This document shows, piece by piece, positions 7,250-62,862 of a stretch of 64,000 nucleotides of DNA. Source of the DNA: a bacterium (GTDB lineage Bacteria > Verrucomicrobiota > Kiritimatiellia > CAIKKV01 > CAITUY01); the NCBI GenBank assembly GCA_037128595.1, contig JBAXWB010000011.1, positions 17,714 to 81,713 of the forward strand. Reading direction: 5' to 3'. The notes below the pieces were generated by a model. It saw nothing but the letters and a program-made list of their open reading frames with translations. It was not told where the DNA came from and did not search any database. The stretch's first letter is position 1. Each line of letters starts with the position of its first letter. A program made the translations under genes and the position numbers.

Positions 7250-8074
7250 ATGAATACTCCGCACGAAATCGACCCGGCCCGACTCCTTGAAATCGTTGTT
7301 CTGGCTGTACGGACCGCAGGCGATCATGCCAACGCCAACCGGCATCGCAGGATGGACACAATGATGGTGGCGGCCCATGACGTGAAGCTACAGCTCGACC
7401 TGGAATGTCAGAACATCATCTGGAGCCTCGTCCGCAAACATTTCCCGCAGCATGCCATCCTGGCGGAAGAAAGCGCCGATAAAGGACAACCGGCGGATGA
7501 CCCCCACCAGTCTCCCTATACCTGGATCATTGACCCGATCGACGGAACGGTGAATTTTTCACACGGCCTGCCCTGGTGGTGCTGTTCGGTGGCCGTAACC
7601 TATCAGGGCCAGACCGTGGCGGCGGCCGTCTATTCCCCCGCCACCCATGAGCTGTTCACGGCCGCCCGTGGCGGGACCGCCTGCTGCAACGGTCTTCCCC
7701 TCGCCGTCGCCGGGACCAAGGCACTCCGGGACTCCATGGTGCTGACCGGCCTGGATCAGAAGTCCACGGAACTCCCTCAGCGCTTGTCGCGTTTTCAGGC
7801 CATTTCAGACGCGGTTCAAAAAACACGCGTCATCGGGGCCGCCGCATTGGATATGTGCCGCGTGGCCGCCGGCCAGGCGGATGGCTATTTTGAAGCGGGC
7901 ATCTACACCTGGGATGTGGCCGCGGCCGGCCTGATCGTTGAACTCGCAGGCGGGCGCGTTGAAATTCTGGACAACCCCTCCCCCCATCGCCTCGTCTATA
8001 TGGCCACCAATGGCCACATCCACGACGAATTAAAAGCCCTGATTAACGGACTGGATTGCAAACGGAAAACCTGA
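7250..8074 (+). CDS. inositol monophosphatase family protein (SuhB-like)
   Basis: WIIDPIDGTVNFSHGLPWWCCSVAV matches the IMPase motif (DPIDGT). The C-terminal WD..AG motif is present. Confidence 0.8.
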   Translation: MNTPHEIDPARLLEIVVLAVRTAGDHANANRHRRMDTMMVAAHDVKLQLDLECQNIIWSLVRKHFPQHAILAEESADKGQPADDPHQSPYTWIIDPIDGTVNFSHGLPWWCCSVAVTYQGQTVAAAVYSPATHELFTAARGGTACCNGLPLAVAGTKALRDSMVLTGLDQKSTELPQRLSRFQAISDAVQKTRVIGAAALDMCRVAAGQADGYFEAGIYTWDVAAAGLIVELAGGRVEILDNPSPHRLVYMATNGHIHDELKALINGLDCKRKT

Positions 8075-8116
8075 AGTCCGGCCACCGGAGTCAGGAGACA
8101 GGATTCAGGAAACACC

Positions 8117-9625
8117 ATGAGTTTTAGAACACCTTTGATTCATCACACGATCCGGGCCCTGGTGCTGAGCATCATGCTGGGGCTCCCTTTGACCAGCCTG
8201 GCAGGGATTGACCGTCAGCGCCAGTCCGTCGCCAAGATCTACGTCACTGTGCAGCAGGAGGATTTCCGCCAGCCCTGGCAGTCCAGCCCGCCGATGAGCG
8301 GCAATGGCTCGGGCTTCATTATCAAGGGAAAGCGCCTGATGACCAACGCCCACGTCGTCTCTGATGCCCGCTTCATTGAAGTCCAGCGCGAAGGCGACAC
8401 CCGTAAATTTCCGGCGCACGTCCGGTTCATTGCCCACGACTGCGACATTGCCGTACTGGAAGTCAATGATGAAGCGTTCTTCGAAGGAACCAAACCCCTG
8501 ACGTTCGGCACCACCCTCCCCAGCCTGAATGACGCCGTGATCGTGCTGGGCTACCCCATGGGGGGCGGCCGCCTGTCTCTCACCAAAGGCGTGGTTTCCC
8601 GCATTGACTACAACCTCTATGCGCACAGTTCCATCGACTCCCACCTGGTGATGCAGGTGGATGCGGCGATCAATCCCGGCAATAGCGGCGGACCGGTGCT
8701 CTTCGACAACAAAGTCATCGGGATCGCGTTCCAGGGCATCGAGGCCTCGCAAAACATCGGCTATACCATCCCGCTCCCGGTCATCGAGCACTTCCTCAAG
8801 GATATTGACGACGGGACCTACGATGGTTACCCGGAACTGGGCGTGGACCATCTCCGCACCGAAAACCCGGCCTTACGCGTGAACCTCGGGCTCCCTAACG
8901 GGAGCAGCGGGGTGGTCGTCGCCAATGTGGACCCTTATGGGGCGGCGGCGGGACTGCTTAAGCCCCGCGATGTACTGCTGGCCATTGACGGCCACCCCAT
9001 TGCCAATGATGGTTCCGTCCGTCTGGATAACAACACGGTGGAATACACGGAGTTCGTGGAGCGCAAGCAATGCACCGAGAGCATCAATTTCACCATCTGG
9101 CGCGAGGATCAAACGCTCGCGATCGTGGTCCCCTTGAGGCGCAAGCCGGACCCGTTCATCTTCCGCCAAACCTATGACCAGAAGCCGGAGTACTTTATTG
9201 CCGGGGGCCTGATTTTCTCCCCCCTCAGCCGTGGCTATCTGGCCACACTGGGCACCGAACTCAATACCCCGCCGGCCCAGCACCTGCTTTACACCGCCCG
9301 CTACGCCAAACTCGACAACCTGATCAAGGATCGCAGTCAGTTCGTCCTGCTCACCGGACGCCTGCCCCACCCCGTCAACACCTATTGCACCAGTCACTTC
9401 AACCAGATTCTGGCCTCCGTCAATGGCCAGCTGATCCGTTCGATCGGTGACCTGCCTGAAGCCCTGAAAAAACCGGTTCAAGGCTTCCATGTCTTCCGCT
9501 TTGAAGGCCAGGATGACCCCCTGATCATGGATGCAGGGCAGGCCGCCAAAGCTGACTCTGAGATACTGACCCATTATAGCATCCCCTCCCTCTCCCGTAT
9601 TCTCCCAGCCCAGGAGGCCAAATAA
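8117..9625 (+). CDS. secreted trypsin-like serine protease, S1C/HtrA-like (catalytic His-Asp-Ser intact, PDZ domain, roughly 170-aa C-terminal extension)
   Basis: Signal peptide present. Triad motifs are TNAHVV (His), DCDIAVL (Asp) and GNSGGPV (Ser). A PDZ-like segment GSSGVVVANVDPYGAAAGLLKPRDVLLAIDG follows. Confidence 0.8.
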   Translation: MSFRTPLIHHTIRALVLSIMLGLPLTSLAGIDRQRQSVAKIYVTVQQEDFRQPWQSSPPMSGNGSGFIIKGKRLMTNAHVVSDARFIEVQREGDTRKFPAHVRFIAHDCDIAVLEVNDEAFFEGTKPLTFGTTLPSLNDAVIVLGYPMGGGRLSLTKGVVSRIDYNLYAHSSIDSHLVMQVDAAINPGNSGGPVLFDNKVIGIAFQGIEASQNIGYTIPLPVIEHFLKDIDDGTYDGYPELGVDHLRTENPALRVNLGLPNGSSGVVVANVDPYGAAAGLLKPRDVLLAIDGHPIANDGSVRLDNNTVEYTEFVERKQCTESINFTIWREDQTLAIVVPLRRKPDPFIFRQTYDQKPEYFIAGGLIFSPLSRGYLATLGTELNTPPAQHLLYTARYAKLDNLIKDRSQFVLLTGRLPHPVNTYCTSHFNQILASVNGQLIRSIGDLPEALKKPVQGFHVFRFEGQDDPLIMDAGQAAKADSEILTHYSIPSLSRILPAQEAK

Positions 9626-36695: not shown

Positions 36696-37279
36696 GACAC
36701 GGCTTTCTTTTCGGCCACAATATCCAGAAAATTCCGCAACAACCGTTTCCCGGTCGGCGTCAAAACGGACTCAGGATGGAACTGGACCCCGTAGGTCGGG
36801 TGCGTCACATGCTGCATCCCCATGATCTCATCGTCCTCACTGAAGGCATTGGCAATCAGTTCAGGCGGCAGCGTCTCTTTCAGAACCGCCAGCGAGTGGT
36901 ACCGCCCCGCCTGAAAGGGGTTGCTCATCCCTTTGAACAGACCCTGTCCATCGTGACGCACTTGCGATACCTTGCCGTGCATAATGCGCTTGGCATTGGA
37001 AACGGTCGCCCCGAAGGCGACCCCCAGCGACTGGTGGCCCAGGCAGACCCCCAGGACCGGGATCCGTCCACTCATCCGCTTGATCAACTCCACGGAAATT
37101 CCGGCCTCTTTGGGCGTACAGGGTCCGGGCGAGACGACCACGGCCTCCGGCTTCAGCGCTTCCACGGCATCCACCGTGATGGCATCGTTCCGGAACACCC
37201 GGATATCCGCACCAATGGCCGCCATCATCTGGACCAGGTTGTAGGTAAAGGAATCGTAATTATCGATTAATATAATCAT
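36692..37279 (-). CDS. trpG: anthranilate synthase component II / glutamine amidotransferase
   Basis: MIILIDNYDSFTYNL and the class I GATase triad region. 4-nt overlaps on both sides. Confidence 0.9.
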   Translation of the reverse strand: MIILIDNYDSFTYNLVQMMAAIGADIRVFRNDAITVDAVEALKPEAVVVSPGPCTPKEAGISVELIKRMSGRIPVLGVCLGHQSLGVAFGATVSNAKRIMHGKVSQVRHDGQGLFKGMSNPFQAGRYHSLAVLKETLPPELIANAFSEDDEIMGMQHVTHPTYGVQFHPESVLTPTGKRLLRNFLDIVAEKKAVS

Positions 37280-38730
37280 ACCACCTCTCCCTCCAGCTCA
37301 AGCGCCCGGGCCGCCAGTTGCACGGCCTTCTGCATGCCCCGCGCCTTGTGGCAGGTTTCCTGATATTCCTTCACCGGGTCAGAATCATGGACAATGCCGG
37401 CACCCGACTGAATCGCGACGGTCCCTCCCTCCAGCTCCAAGGTCCGGATGGTGATCGCCAGGTCCATATTGCCATCATACCCCACATACCCCACGGCCCC
37501 ACCATACGCCCCGCGCGGCCCGGGCTCCAACTCATGGATGATCTCCATGGCGCGGATCTTCGGGGCACCGGACAGGGTCCCCGCCGGGAACGTGGCTCGA
37601 ATCACATCGTAGGCGTCGAATTCCTTCCGCAATACTCCCTGGACGTGCGACACCAGATGCATCACATGGCTGTAACGCTCGATGACCATATAATCCGTCA
37701 CCTGCACGCTGCCCATCTCCGAAAGCCGGCCGATATCATTACGCCCGAGATCCACCAGCATGACATGTTCCGCCCGTTCTTTCTCGTCCGAGAGCAATTC
37801 ATCCGCCAGGGCCCGATCCTCGGCATCGTCCTTCCCGCGGGGACGCGTTCCGGCAATGGGTCGCAACTCCACGCGACTGCCGGTCAGGCGTACCATGACT
37901 TCAGGAGATGACCCCACCAGGGTCTGGCTTCCCAGTTTCAGGAAAAACGTATAGGGCGAAGGATTCAACAGCCGCAGAGCGCGATACAGATCCAGGGGCG
38001 GCAGGTCGACCGTGGCGCAGAACCGCTGGCTTAGGACGACCTGAATGATGTCGCCGGCCGTGATATACTCCTTTGCCCGCTTGACCATCCCGCAAAACTG
38101 ATCCTGCGTCAGGTTCGATTCAAAGGCCACTTCGCCCGCACTCCGCCGGCTCACCGGCCGTGCCATCGGCTGGTTCAGGGTATGTTCAATCCCTTCAATT
38201 TCCGAAACGGCACGCCGATAGGCCGCCTCCGGCGTAGGAGATTCGGACGGTCGGGTGCAGACAACGATCTTGATCGTGTGGCGGATATTATCGAATACAA
38301 TCATCCGGTCCGCCTGAACGAACCGGCTGCGCAGCCGCATTCCCGGCCGGCCTTCCTTGGGCGCGGGCATGCGTTCAAACTCCCCCATCGCCTCGTAGCC
38401 GATGAATCCCACGGCCCCCCCGATAAAGCGGGGAAGCCCCGGAACCGCCGCCACCCGGACCCCCTTGAAGATCCGCCGGATCTCCTCCAGCCCTTTTCCC
38501 GGTTGCCGGTGGTCCACTTCCAGGAACGGACGCGGATCAATCCCGACAAAGGAATACCGTCCCCATTTTTCGCCGCCCTCCATACTTTCCAGGAGAAAGA
38601 CGTTCTCCCGGTTCATGAAACGCTGCAGCACGGAGACCGGAGTCTCCGTGTCAGCGAGGACTTCCTTGTACACCGGCACGATGTCATAGGCCCGCGCCAG
38701 TCCGGCATAATCTTTTTCATTGGGATACAT
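37276..38730 (-). CDS. trpE: anthranilate synthase component I
   Basis: Chorismate-binding enzyme signatures are present. Start is chosen at MYPNEKDYAGLA. The ORF-track start is 34 codons longer and would run into the leader repeats. Confidence 0.9.
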   Translation of the reverse strand: MYPNEKDYAGLARAYDIVPVYKEVLADTETPVSVLQRFMNRENVFLLESMEGGEKWGRYSFVGIDPRPFLEVDHRQPGKGLEEIRRIFKGVRVAAVPGLPRFIGGAVGFIGYEAMGEFERMPAPKEGRPGMRLRSRFVQADRMIVFDNIRHTIKIVVCTRPSESPTPEAAYRRAVSEIEGIEHTLNQPMARPVSRRSAGEVAFESNLTQDQFCGMVKRAKEYITAGDIIQVVLSQRFCATVDLPPLDLYRALRLLNPSPYTFFLKLGSQTLVGSSPEVMVRLTGSRVELRPIAGTRPRGKDDAEDRALADELLSDEKERAEHVMLVDLGRNDIGRLSEMGSVQVTDYMVIERYSHVMHLVSHVQGVLRKEFDAYDVIRATFPAGTLSGAPKIRAMEIIHELEPGPRGAYGGAVGYVGYDGNMDLAITIRTLELEGGTVAIQSGAGIVHDSDPVKEYQETCHKARGMQKAVQLAARALELEGEVV

Positions 38731-38733
38731 AAT

Positions 38734-38751
38734 GTTTCTATGTATAGAAAC
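38734..38751. promoter_or_regulatory. 18-bp perfect palindrome GTTTCTATgtATAGAAAC lying between -4 and -21 of the trpE start codon (candidate operator / RBS-sequestering hairpin)
   Basis: Seen directly: 8-bp arms with a 2-nt centre, covering the position where the trpE SD should be. Confidence 0.5.
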
Positions 38752-38824
38752 AACCGCGAGGAAAGTCAAAGAAAAAATCAGCACCCCCTGCCCACCCTGG
38801 CCTCCATAGCCTTGGCGACGGAGG

Positions 38825-38860
38825 CTGCTCACTGCCTACTGCCCACTGCCCACTGGCTTC
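38825..38860 (-). repeat. tandem heptad repeat array (CAGTGGG-CAGTGGG-CAGTAGG-CAGTGAG-CAG) in the trp leader; same family as 62186-62267
   Basis: Direct reading of the minus strand. It shares the flanking GAAGC (plus cactggcttc) with the second locus. Confidence 0.7.
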
Positions 38861-38862
38861 CC

Positions 38863-39282
38863 TCACGGCTCCTTCATGGAGGCCACCCGGCCGGGGAAAT
38901 TCTGGGACAACGCGTCAACCAAAGCGCGATGGAACTGCTGGTAATATTCCCGGCTGTCCAGACCGCGGGTTAACGGCATCAAATGCACCGCGATTCTGCC
39001 GCTGGTCCGCTTGGCATAAAAGGCGATGGTCAAACTCGGGGTCGGCTGATAATAGCGGATGATATCCAGATCGCTCGGCTTGGTTTTGGACATTTGGTAG
39101 GTGGTGGCCACCCGATCCAGCACCTCCTTGAGGCGCGTCTCATCCGCATCCGTCACCTTGGGCTCGCCCGCCGCAGGATAGATGAGATAATAGGCGATTT
39201 TCGGCCTTTCGCCGCATCCGGCAAGCAGCGCCAACGCGCACACCACCACACTCAGTCTAGCCAGTTTAGAAAAAAGACGCAT
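38863..39282 (-). CDS. hypothetical lipoprotein
   Basis: Start at MRLFSKLARLSVVVCALALLAGC (lipobox LAGC). No family recognised. Confidence 0.55.
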   Translation of the reverse strand: MRLFSKLARLSVVVCALALLAGCGERPKIAYYLIYPAAGEPKVTDADETRLKEVLDRVATTYQMSKTKPSDLDIIRYYQPTPSLTIAFYAKRTSGRIAVHLMPLTRGLDSREYYQQFHRALVDALSQNFPGRVASMKEP

Positions 39283-40064: not shown

Positions 40065-40265
40065 TCGGAGCAATGTACCGAAGATGAACCGGAGGGGAAA
40101 GCGGAAAGAAAGCGAAGTTATTGGTAATGGGTAATGGGTGATTTGCAACAGGGAGATGAGTTTTATCAAGAACTGAAAAGGCCCACGTACGTATGCGCGC
40201 GGGGTTTCCGGTGTCGGCAGTGGTGGCGCGGGCTCGATGACGGCTGAGGGGGCGGTTCAGTAAAT

Positions 40266-60811: not shown

Positions 60812-62203
60812 ATGCACCTCCCCGATATTCTTGGACAAACAGGCGTGATTATTGCACAATCTGGCATTGTGAAATTAAGACCCGAGACCTCTGAGCTCAC
60901 CCATCTGCTGCAGGAAATCGAAGAGATTGCCGGACAAGGGGCCGTTTATCACGCCCTTTACGAGCGGCAGGTGCTTCTGAACAAAAAAGTCTGCACCTTC
61001 TGCCGACAGGCACTGGCCCATCCGGTCGCCGCCTCGTTATGCCGGGTGGCCTGCTGTAATGGGACCTTGCAATCAATGAGCGCGGGGGAGCCGTATTATT
61101 TCCGATGCTGGGCCAATCTGCTGGTGATCGCCATTCCGGTGGCGCCCCATGGCAAGTGCATCGGCGGCATTACGCTGGGCGGCTTCTGTGTGAGTGGCGA
61201 AAAACCGGACATCCGGGAGGCCGTTACCCAGTTGGCCCGGTCATGGCCTGACGCCCATCCCGCCACCTTCCTGAAGCAATTGGAGTCGGTGAAACTCATC
61301 ACTCCCGCCGCCTTGAGAGGCCTGGGGGCCCTGGCGATGGAGACCACCTTTTCCAATGGCATTAATTCGAGTGAGTTTTTCCGCAGGCAAAATGGGAAAT
61401 ATCTCCAGCAACGCCGGATCGCCGAGGCGGCCGCCGAGATCCGGGAGAACCCTGAGGCCACGCCGGACATCCCGGGCAATACCTATCAGCTCATTACATT
61501 TCTGAATAAGGGCAATAAGCCTGAGGCCCACACCTTCATTTCGCAATATCTCGCAAAACTCCTGCTGGCGAGTAATTGGGACCCGCTAAAATTGAAGGCC
61601 CATCTTCGCGTCCTGCTGGCCGTCATGACGAGTCAGGATATTCTGCGGGGCACCCCCTGGGCGGTCGCCACCAGCCGGGAACTGCGCAACATGGTCCGGC
61701 TGGAGCAGGCCCGCACGACGGAGGAAAGCTGTTACGAGGTGACGGAATGGATCCAGCAGTTTTTTGTCGGACAGAACACCCTGACTCACGACGGGCGCAG
61801 CCTGGCCGAGCGGGTCACCCACTGGCTTCAATCCCATTATCCGGAGAGCGTCACGCTTGACCTGGCATCAAAGGCCGTGGGGGTGAGTTCCTCAACGCTC
61901 GTGCACCGCTTACGGCAGGAAGTGGGAAAAACCTTCAAGGAAATCCTCACCGAGATCCGTATTTCAGAGGCCAAGAAATTCCTCGCCACCACCTCGCTGG
62001 ACATCAGCGGTATCGGGGACGCCTGCGGTTTCTTCGACCAGAGCCATTTTACGCGGGAATTCAAGAAAGCCATCAATCTCACCCCGGGCGCATTCCGGAA
62101 ACTGCTCCGCGTGCCCGACGAAGCCCTGAACCGGCCCGGCAGCGGAAATCTCGATGAAACCGCGCCTTTGAGAAAACGGAAGACAGTTAGCAGTAAGCAG
62201 TAG
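60812..62203 (+). CDS. AraC-family transcriptional regulator with an N-terminal Cys-rich sensory (PocR-like) domain
   Basis: C-terminal dual HTH_AraC (LASKAVGVSSSTLVHRLRQ ... ISGIGDACGFFDQSHFTREFKK). The last five codons (VSSKQ) are encoded by the heptad repeat. Confidence 0.8.
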   Translation: MHLPDILGQTGVIIAQSGIVKLRPETSELTHLLQEIEEIAGQGAVYHALYERQVLLNKKVCTFCRQALAHPVAASLCRVACCNGTLQSMSAGEPYYFRCWANLLVIAIPVAPHGKCIGGITLGGFCVSGEKPDIREAVTQLARSWPDAHPATFLKQLESVKLITPAALRGLGALAMETTFSNGINSSEFFRRQNGKYLQQRRIAEAAAEIRENPEATPDIPGNTYQLITFLNKGNKPEAHTFISQYLAKLLLASNWDPLKLKAHLRVLLAVMTSQDILRGTPWAVATSRELRNMVRLEQARTTEESCYEVTEWIQQFFVGQNTLTHDGRSLAERVTHWLQSHYPESVTLDLASKAVGVSSSTLVHRLRQEVGKTFKEILTEIRISEAKKFLATTSLDISGIGDACGFFDQSHFTREFKKAINLTPGAFRKLLRVPDEALNRPGSGNLDETAPLRKRKTVSSKQ

Positions 62204-62267
62204 GCAGATACCAAATTCTACCCACTGTCTACTGCCCACTGCTTACTGCCCACTGCTCACTGGCTTC
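62186..62267. repeat. heptad-repeat element: 2.4 CAGTRRG units on the plus strand (62190-62207) facing 6 units on the minus strand (62221-62262); forms a 17/18-bp hairpin between convergent genes
   Basis: Direct reading. Plus 62190-62207 pairs with 62232-62249. It shares cactggcttc with the 38825-38860 locus. Confidence 0.7.
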
Positions 62268-62862
62268 AATTCTTCCCGTGCGCCTGCTCATAACGCTTGA
62301 TCTCATCCCGGAGTTTGGCGGCCTCTTCGTAGTCTTCTTTGGCGATCGCCTTTTCCTGTTTGGCCTTCAACTGCTCGAGCGGAGAGCCCTTCGATTTGGC
62401 GGATTTGGCGGGTTCGCCGGCCTGCGCCTTGCCGGACGCTTCCGCCTTCGCGTCGGCCTCCTTCTCTTCCGCAATCACGACCCCCGCCTTATTCATCACC
62501 TGCGCGGTCACATAGAGCGGGGAGGAGCACCGCAACCCAAGGGCGATCGCATCACTCGGCCGGGCGTCAATCTCGGTTTCAACCCCGTCATGTTCCAACA
62601 CCAGTACCGCAAAAAAAGTATTATCCACCACATCCTTGATCACCACCCGCATTAAGCGACACTCCATGCAATCCAGTACGTTTTTGAACAGATCATGGGT
62701 CAGGGGACGGGGAATTTGAACCTTTTCAAGCCACAAGGCAATCGACTGGGCTTCCGCCCCGCCAATGAATATGGGCAGCGTCCGGGGATCGGGATCCCCC
62801 TTGAGCAGAACCACAAATCCCAGATTGGACAACGATAACCCGGCTACTTTGACATGAATCAT
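62266..62862 (-). CDS. bifunctional-nuclease (BFN/DUF151) domain protein with a C-terminal UVR (UvrB/UvrC-type) motif
   Basis: DUF151 core (VVLLKGD...PIFIGGAEAQSIA) and a C-terminal AKEDYEEAAKLRDEI UVR-like helix. Confidence 0.65.
   Translation of the reverse strand: MIHVKVAGLSLSNLGFVVLLKGDPDPRTLPIFIGGAEAQSIALWLEKVQIPRPLTHDLFKNVLDCMECRLMRVVIKDVVDNTFFAVLVLEHDGVETEIDARPSDAIALGLRCSSPLYVTAQVMNKAGVVIAEEKEADAKAEASGKAQAGEPAKSAKSKGSPLEQLKAKQEKAIAKEDYEEAAKLRDEIKRYEQAHGKN

Follow-up and report, generated by a model that had tools for sequence, protein, structure and literature searches.

Tandem repeats with a unit of seven nucleotides (nt), or heptads, lie at two loci of the DNA treated here, a stretch of 64,000 nt on contig JBAXWB010000011.1 (assembly GCA_037128595.1) from a bacterium of the Kiritimatiellia. 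This whole stretch is referred to as the window, and positions are counted from its first letter. The repeat unit is CAGTRRG. Locus 1 is the spacer between a lipoprotein-like gene and trpE, and locus 2 is the junction of two convergent genes that encode a PocR/AraC-family regulator and a bifunctional nuclease. The feature is a CAGTRRG simple-sequence repeat (SSR), made of a GCAGT core and two purines, and it is one among several heptad arrays of this lineage. In all three CAGTRRG arrays of the window, the purine-rich strand coincides with the sense strand of whichever gene ends at the array. The features of both loci are collected in Table 1.

At locus 1, all genes lie on the minus strand, and the lipoprotein-like gene is separated from trpE by 132 nt (stop at 38863-65; trpE ATG at 38730), as an earlier sequence-only reading of this DNA had correctly given. 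The CAGTRRG units which that reading had seen on the minus strand were recovered by Tandem Repeats Finder (TRF) at 38825-38855, with a period of 7, 4.4 copies and 87% matches. The minus-strand order is TGA GGGAAGC CAGTGGG CAGTGGG CAGTAGG CAGTGAG CAG. The array begins 7 nt past the stop codon of the lipoprotein-like gene, on the sense strand of that gene; it brings a TAG in frame with the gene, eight codons past the stop, and a TGA that closes the +1 frame. The intervening GGGAAGC is probably a decayed heptad unit, and the 7 nt preceding the arrays of the survey described below usually resemble a decayed unit as well.

Locus 2 (62184-62262) consists of two CAGTRRG arrays that oppose each other as an inverted pair, with a 13-nt gap between them. 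The plus arm, 62184-62207, reads CAGTTAG CAGTAAG CAGTAGG CAG (TRF period 7, 3.4 copies), and the minus arm, 62221-62262, reads CAGTGAG CAGTGGG CAGTAAG CAGTGGG CAGTAGA CAGTGGG (TRF 6.0 copies). The minus arm begins 3 nt past the TGA of the nuclease gene, on its sense strand, and all three frames are closed within 37 nt. On the other side, the open reading frame (ORF) of the PocR/AraC gene runs into the plus array and terminates at the TAG of the third unit, so that the array encodes the tail KTVSSKQ. The PocR/AraC orthologues agree through ...APLRKR and then diverge exactly at the array start (L128 10554-10640, L132 10651-10700); beyond that point the orthologue tails are unrelated and of differing lengths. 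The arrays supply backup stop codons, and the PocR/AraC gene even draws its actual stop and its C-terminal tail from its array. The flank GAAGC-CAGTG is present at both loci (38856-38860 and 62263-67), and at locus 2 its GAAGC overlaps the stop codon (TGA-AGC). The sequence-only reading was therefore right that the unit and its GAAGC flank recur 23 kb away, and had left the inverted pairing there unremarked.

Table 1. Coordinates of the genes, heptad arrays and accompanying features at locus 1 and locus 2 of the window
Feature	Position	Strand	Basis or remark
Locus 1: trpE (anthranilate synthase component I), then trpG, trpD	37276..38730	-	Chorismate_bind, GATase, Glycos_transf_3
Locus 1: promoter-like block TTGACT (38764-69), 17 nt, TATACA (38741-46), overlapping palindrome GTTTCTATACATAGAAAC (38734-51)	38734..38769	-	conserved in five orthologous spacers
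Locus 1: predicted stem-loop using last heptad unit (38776-38833), then U-run UUUUUUCUUU (38768-38777)	38768..38833	-	folding
Locus 1: 37-nt palindromic element CCTCCGTCGCCAAGGCTATGGAGGCCAGGGTGGGCAG	38788..38824	-	in or beside array; separate repeat family
Locus 1: heptad array CAGTGGG CAGTGGG CAGTAGG CAGTGAG CAG	38825..38855	-	sequence, TRF, chance test
Locus 1: junction GGGAAGC, stop to array	38856..38862	-	contains GAAGC flank; relatives show GAAGA there
Locus 1: lipoprotein-like gene, 139 aa	38863..39279	-	signal peptide and LLAGC lipobox; TGA stop 38863-38865; ORF list, gene call in public assembly L126
Locus 2: PocR/AraC-family regulator gene	60812..62203	+	TAG stop 62201-03; last 7 codons and stop encoded by plus array
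Locus 2: heptad arm CAGTTAG CAGTAAG CAGTAGG CAG	62184..62207	+	sequence, TRF, chance test
Locus 2: loop separating inverted arrays	62208..62220	.	folding
Locus 2: heptad arm, six units	62221..62262	-	sequence, TRF, folding
Locus 2: bifunctional nuclease gene (BFN and UVR domains)	62266..62862	-	TGA stop 62266-68; convergent with PocR/AraC gene

Two adjacent CAGTRRG units, CAGTRRGCAGTRRG, with at most one mismatch, give 10 matches in the 64-kb window against 0.17 expected, and none of 100 shuffles attained 10. A looser pattern search of the window found no third CAGTRRG locus. At both loci the arrays are identical across independent public assemblies of the same organism (five and two assemblies), and therefore they are not assembly artefacts. 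The arrays are head-to-tail 7-nt tandems of at least three copies, which places them in the class of long SSRs resembling the short tandemly repeated repetitive (STRR) sequences. Several different heptad units occur within the 64 kb: besides the two CAGTRRG loci there are a CAGGANN and a GGTAATG array. The former (GGAGTCA GGAGACA GGATTCA GGAAACA, or CAGGANN x4, plus strand, 8087-8114) fills the gap from the stop at 8074 to the ATG at 8117 and presents a GGA/GGAG motif each 7 nt directly before the start codon; a comparable array lies at L132 5361-5387. The latter, at 40123-40139, is a perfect short repeat, (GGTAATG) x2.4, in the spacer 3' of a phosphoglucomutase gene.

The behaviour of the arrays at orthologous sites is that of an SSR. 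The junction between the lipoprotein-like gene and trpE was retrieved from four related genomes with 71-88% protein identity, so that five spacers, including that of the window, were compared. All five carry TTGACT, 17 nt and TATA(C/T)A with the overlapping palindrome GTTTCTATAYATAGAAAC directly before the trpE ATG (window 38734-38769), and the stretch from the stop codon to this promoter-like block varies throughout. Upstream of the block, the window has four direct units and the 37-nt palindromic element, L153 has three CAGTGGG/CAGTGGA units facing about five CTGCNNA units, L154 has four units facing four, L158 has direct CAGTTGT/CAGTTAC units and then T8, and L156 has nothing, its whole spacer being 58 nt. 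Since a variable stretch stands above a fixed promoter-like block, the locus 1 array is part of the upstream gene's 3' flank. The conservation at orthologous loci that the sequence-only reading had required of its proposal holds for the array site at locus 1, which is kept in four of five lineages despite turnover of the unit sequence, and does not hold for the unit, the copy number or the arrangement.

Locus 2 was compared in three relatives. In the closest one (nuclease 92% identical, gene order kept) there is no array; the TGA is followed by GGCGGCTGCCCACTTTCTTCCG, with at most one unit. The relative at 84% identity has a heptad hairpin in decayed form, and a third relative has another neighbour gene and no array. 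Copy number and sequence thus differ at orthologous sites (five genomes at locus 1, three at locus 2), as in a simple-sequence repeat. The relatives of the window carry heptad arrays of other units too. In L130 (172-280), an inverted pair of GAATCCA x4.4 facing ATTCTGG x4.6 lies between two genes, and in L132 (4323-4389) GAATTAT x7.9 overlaps the 3' end of an ABC-transporter gene on the opposite strand.

The conserved block at locus 1 may be the promoter and operator of a nearly leaderless trpE mRNA. It ends 3 nt upstream of the trpE ATG and has no Shine-Dalgarno sequence, and the palindrome within it is perfect, GTTTCTAT-AY-ATAGAAAC. The lipoprotein-like protein on the other side of the spacer belongs to a narrow family, with 22 homologues.

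A different repeat accompanies the arrays at two sites of the lineage. A near-identical copy of window 38788-38824, CCTCCGTCGCCGAGGCTATGGAAGCCAGGGTAGGCAG, interrupts the 5' arm of the locus 2 hairpin in the 84% relative (L132 10587-10623). The 22-nt core of this 37-nt element was found at 18 metagenome loci with unrelated flanks (L135-L152); outer inverted repeats are present at some of them, a tandem of two 37-nt copies at one, and 122-nt tandem arrays at two. Diverged copies exist as well. The hairpin core is GCCTCC...GGAGGC, and L139 7091-7156 is among the positions of the element. Neither Rfam (including five loci that carry the hairpin) nor a literature string search gave a match for the element. 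It is a separate small dispersed palindrome, which appears to have landed in or beside heptad arrays at these two sites.

Folding was predicted with ViennaRNA. The inverted array pairs fold into a long stem-loop, at locus 2 in the window and at locus 1 in two relatives (L153, L154). The locus 2 hairpin has -47 kcal/mol and a z-score of -5.4 as minus-strand RNA, and -38.8 kcal/mol and z -5.5 as plus-strand RNA; the two strands differ in energy because G·U pairs on one strand are A·C mismatches on the other. The tail of this hairpin is moderately U-rich. In L154, the locus 1 hairpin (-39.2 kcal/mol, z -5.6) is followed by AUUAUUUCUUU. In the window, the last unit of locus 1 pairs with downstream sequence in a predicted stem of -29 kcal/mol, followed by U6CU3 (UUUUUUCUUU). 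In this model, the locus 1 stem-loop and U-run look like an intrinsic terminator of the upstream gene.

For a wider view, the pattern (CAGTRRG)3 was searched in species-representative genomes and in viral contigs, each of which yielded at least 120 loci; 120 and 120 were analysed, with gene positions taken from a simple greedy ORF caller. The pattern itself fixed TRR in the units surveyed. Over the whole genome collection, about 17 loci would be expected by chance (a rough estimate), as against at least 120. The genome matches listed come from Acidobacteriota, Planctomycetota, Chloroflexota, Bacteroidota, Cyanobacteria, Verrucomicrobiota, Gemmatimonadota, Nitrospirota, Desulfobacterota, Campylobacterota and Spirochaetota, and from Streptomyces, Cryobacterium and Mesorhizobium. 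Cultured carriers among them include Algivirga pacifica JCM 18326, Maribacter polysiphoniae DSM 23514, Hymenobacter arizonensis, Algoriphagus kandeliae and Mesorhizobium jarvisii. The repeat is therefore more than local low complexity, as the sequence-only reading had held: its unit recurs at two loci, at orthologous sites and in many genomes. Genome arrays mostly have 3-6 units, with CAGTAGG (188), CAGTGAG (175), CAGTGGG (119) and CAGTAAG (84) among the matches listed; in the cyanobacterial matches, CAGTGAG is mixed with CAGTTAA and CAGTTAT. Other heptads in viral contigs gave at least 120 loci for CTGARRG, 47 for GACTRRG and 10 for ACGTRRG; GACTRRG and CTGARRG had been meant as controls and proved to be heptad families themselves, which leaves ACGTRRG alone as a low baseline. 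Contigs of phages and prophages commonly carry heptad arrays (L159-L444), and a single contig may have several, as L236 does with 8 matches in 9.5 kb. Among the CTGARRG arrays of viral contigs, unlike CAGTRRG, 45% are followed by a co-oriented start within 20 nt.

The surveyed arrays follow stop codons. In genomes, the array starts within 20 nt of a co-oriented upstream stop in 40 of 65 cases (median 12 nt), whereas it ends within 20 nt of the next start in 5 of 53 (Fisher 3.5e-9); in viral contigs the corresponding counts are 52 of 74 (median 8 nt) and 13 of 69 (Fisher 6e-10). An association with gene ends and a strand bias, which the sequence-only reading had proposed to test, are both seen in these counts. 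Arrays abut a co-oriented stop in 62-70% of cases, against 3-10% that abut the stop of a convergent gene on the 3' side. About one case in four has a unit of the array as its stop codon, often in register (e.g., TGA g/CAGTGAG). Every inverted partner that lies within 150 nt stands on the downstream side (14:0 in genomes, 31:0 in viral contigs, 45:0 in total), and therefore the purine-rich arm comes first on both strands, which is the sole arrangement among the surveyed pairs. The reverse order of arms would give an equally stable hairpin and is found in none of the 45 pairs (L006-L125, L159-L278). Units decay symmetrically at the two sides of the arrays, which gives no evidence for growth at one end.

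We consider it reasonably probable that these arrays are heptad SSRs generated by slippage, which at the two loci of the window form stem-loops at transcript ends and whose orientation is kept by selection. The arrays would arise and change through slipped-strand mispairing, in steps of 7 nt. Stem-loops built from them, single or paired, would mark the end of the upstream transcript, either as a terminator or as a 3'-protective hairpin; the stem-loop of locus 1 would also involve the separately inserted 37-nt palindrome, with the U-run after it. Selection acting on RNA or on translation termination would then keep the orientation of the array.

Several observations weigh against this reading. 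Compared with shuffled sequence, the stem at locus 1 does not stand out significantly (z -1.7), and a consensus terminator scan flagged nothing at locus 1 or locus 2. L156 has neither array nor hairpin at locus 1, so the structure is dispensable there. Copy-number variation between strains, which the sequence-only reading had proposed to test, was not seen among the five and two assemblies of the same organism. An inverted partner is present in only about 10-20% of the surveyed arrays and T-runs after array hairpins are few and not general, and hence a terminator role cannot explain the whole class. Finally, the strict orientation rules are unexplained by slippage alone.

The arrays may also be neutral products of slippage, without function and persisting where they are harmless. 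Relatives differ freely in presence, unit and copy number, the array is missing altogether from one of them and decay is symmetric at both array ends, all as this account would have it, and the literature ascribes the excess of heptanucleotides to polymerase slippage (as cited in PMC4679880 and PMC4692102). Yet it predicts no orientation rule, against the stop-adjacent bias and the 45:0 pairing found in the survey, nor does it sit well with the retention of the locus 1 site in four of five lineages despite unit turnover, and we regard it as rather unlikely. A functional alternative, which we rate as unlikely, is that the arrays are three-frame stop cassettes that limit read-through and frameshift products and keep ribosomes out of a downstream hairpin. 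TRR reads TAA, TAG, TGA or TGG, and a period of 7 shifts the reading frame from unit to unit, so that ribosomes would be stopped in every frame; all three frames are closed by 236 of 294 arrays (80%), the gene takes its own stop from a unit in about one quarter of cases, and the frames closed at locus 2 (three within 37 nt) and at locus 1 (in-frame TAG, +1 TGA) are of this kind. With the purine arm first, a ribosome would run into stops first whichever side it came from. Few arrays (23 of 294) consist of TGG units alone, and these are less often adjacent to a stop (5 of 14, against about 65%). However, TRR was fixed by the search pattern, the stop-free CAGTGGG occurs more often than any other unit at locus 1 and accounts for 21% of all units, TAA and TGG units are both depleted rather than TGG alone, and the stop-free heptads GGGAATC and GGGGAYT show an equal stop-adjacent coding-strand bias (PMC4692102).

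Three further accounts fare worse. The sequence-only reading had proposed a dispersed element like the repetitive extragenic palindromic (REP) sequences; on this account the arrays would be a mobile element of a fixed family, spread by a transposase of the RAYT type (REP-associated tyrosine transposase). GTAG and GTGG are tetranucleotides typical of REP heads and occur in the units; moreover, the two loci 23 kb apart have a common unit and GAAGC flank, and the truly dispersed 37-nt palindrome accompanies arrays in two genomes. Against it stand the direct tandem array at locus 1 and the change of unit, number and arrangement between relatives, and the CAGTRRG unit, unlike species-specific REPs, occurs in many phyla and in phage contigs, with only two loci in 64 kb. 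We rejected the proposal on account of the simple-sequence-repeat behaviour at orthologous sites and consider it very improbable. It is still harder to see the arrays as a regulatory repeat that forms G-quadruplexes, as proposed for GGGAATC/GGGGAYT, although the G-rich strand is the sense strand and there are about four units within 50 nt of the stop, as in PMC4692102. No quadruplex motif exists on either strand at either locus (regular expressions G3+N1-7 and G3+N1-12), so that even with loops of up to 12 nt no run of four G3 tracts is formed; GGG occurs in two of four units at locus 1, in three of six in the minus arm of locus 2 and in none of its plus arm, and most surveyed CAGTRRG units have TAGG, TGAG or TAAG. 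The quadruplex was accordingly rejected. A trp-specific leader, with an attenuator or TRAP-like triplets that control trpE, has next to no probability. The sequence-only reading had labelled the array as lying in a trp leader, and this account can point to the position before trpE, to UGG, UAG and GAG triplets and to a 42-aa ORF over the spacer with three Trp codons. But an array of the same type follows the unrelated nuclease gene, and at locus 1 the array occupies a hypervariable stretch, which one relative lacks, upstream of the promoter-like block shared by all five genomes. Bacillus TRAP sites consist of 9-11 (G/U)AG triplets spaced 5-6 nt apart; here the units recur every 7 nt. Tandem Trp codons are absent, and Rfam gave nothing credible, either for the whole window at the gathering threshold or for the locus at E up to 10. 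An attenuator, a TRAP site and a T-box were rejected on these grounds.

Beyond the reading favoured above, it is conceivable, if doubtful, that CAGT-core arrays are a cross-phylum 3'-end module, phages included, which is read by conserved machinery. Its readers may be the terminating ribosome, Rho on the C-rich antisense transcript, or an RNA- or single-stranded-DNA-binding protein. If true, such a module would explain the stop-anchored sense strand, the 5' end facing the nearest gene and the 45:0 pairing. Heptanucleotide repeats were reported in cyanobacteria decades ago, and their over-representation in bacterial genomes was noted by 2007. What the present loci contribute is a comparative series at one site, in which a repeat turns over beside a fixed promoter-like block, together with a rule, replicated in bacterial genomes and viral contigs, that arrays start on the sense strand at stop codons, and the 45:0 handedness. 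If these rules reflect function, translation termination or transcript 3' ends are the places to look. For annotation, the lesson is that an array of this sort should not be taken for an operon leader, and that the stop codon of a gene and a variable C-terminal tail can come from one.

The sequence-only reading could not name a family for the repeat, and yet the class has been described, as long SSRs, cyanobacterial STRR, TAACTGA repeats and GGGAATC/GGGGAYT heptamers (PMC4679880, PMC4692102). Among the long SSRs of many bacterial genomes, heptanucleotides are the commonest class, and polymerase slippage has been put forward to explain how they arise (Mrazek 2007, as cited in PMC4679880 and PMC4692102). 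A literature string search for (CAGTRRG)2 returned no bacterial papers, and in the searchable literature we did not find the CAGTRRG unit, its breadth over phyla and phages or the strict handedness of pairs; these may be new.

Compared with REP sequences, bacterial interspersed mosaic elements (BIMEs) and REPINs, the arrays are likewise short, extragenic, often at gene 3' ends, capable of forming hairpins and dispersed. Those elements, however, are fixed imperfect palindromes of 20-40 nt, species-specific and linked to RAYT, whereas here 7-mers in tandem are drifting: locus 1 is a direct array, and the palindrome of locus 2 is made of drifting heptads, so that neither is a fixed palindrome. 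Of the two kinds of repeat, the 37-nt element (38788-38824) resembles REP more than the heptads do. As in intrinsic terminators, a predicted stem-loop directly follows the gene and then a U-rich run (locus 1, L154), and locus 2 has a predicted two-way hairpin between convergent genes; unlike in them, the stems consist of repeated 7-mers and are much longer than usual, and most surveyed arrays are missing a partner arm or a U-run.

The cyanobacterial STRR heptanucleotides reportedly have the units CCCCAGT, CAACAGT and TTGGTCA, and small dispersed repeats in cyanobacteria are said to have been treated by Elhai in 2008. The STRR, too, are tandem heptanucleotides dispersed in intergenic DNA, and two of their units share the CAGT core (as CAGTCCC and CAGTCAA). 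They differ in the last three bases, and CAGTRRG extends beyond cyanobacteria (Acidobacteriota, Planctomycetota, Chloroflexota, Bacteroidota, Verrucomicrobiota, Streptomyces, Mesorhizobium and phage contigs). With the CAGT core alone in common, the arrays are not STRR in the strict cyanobacterial sense.

TAACTGA direct repeats occur in marine Beggiatoaceae, cyanobacteria and Bacteroidetes, for the most part directly upstream of start codons (MacGregor 2015, PMC4679880). Their reverse complement, CAGTTAT, has the CAGT core, they are patchy across phyla in 2-6 intergenic copies, and their indels of 7-nt steps between strains can be counted as a further likeness to the window arrays. They stand upstream of start codons in the TAACTGA orientation, whereas here the CAGT strand follows stops. 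Their placement near starts is shared by the CTGARRG arrays of the surveyed viral contigs. Heptamer repeats upstream of Nostoc recF and recO are reported to have modest regulatory effects, with no mechanism given (preprint 10.1101/2022.06.06.494920).

The G-rich heptamers GGGAATC of Xanthomonas and GGGGA(C/T)T of Nostoc, for which four units are preferred, no function was identified and a G-quadruplex was proposed, lie within 50 bp past stop codons, on the coding strand, with their 5' ends toward the nearest ORF and with occasional inverted pairs (Rehm et al. 2015, PMC4692102). Their unit is not CAGTRRG; here the units carry stop codons and, with fewer than four consecutive G3 tracts at both loci, there is no quadruplex motif. 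In other respects the arrays are alike: the unit is 7 nt with a G-rich coding strand, mostly intergenic, in about four copies, with inverted pairs and with a length that varies between relatives. The placement is the same as well, on the sense strand and with 7 nt (locus 1) and 3 nt (locus 2) from the stop codon to the first unit.

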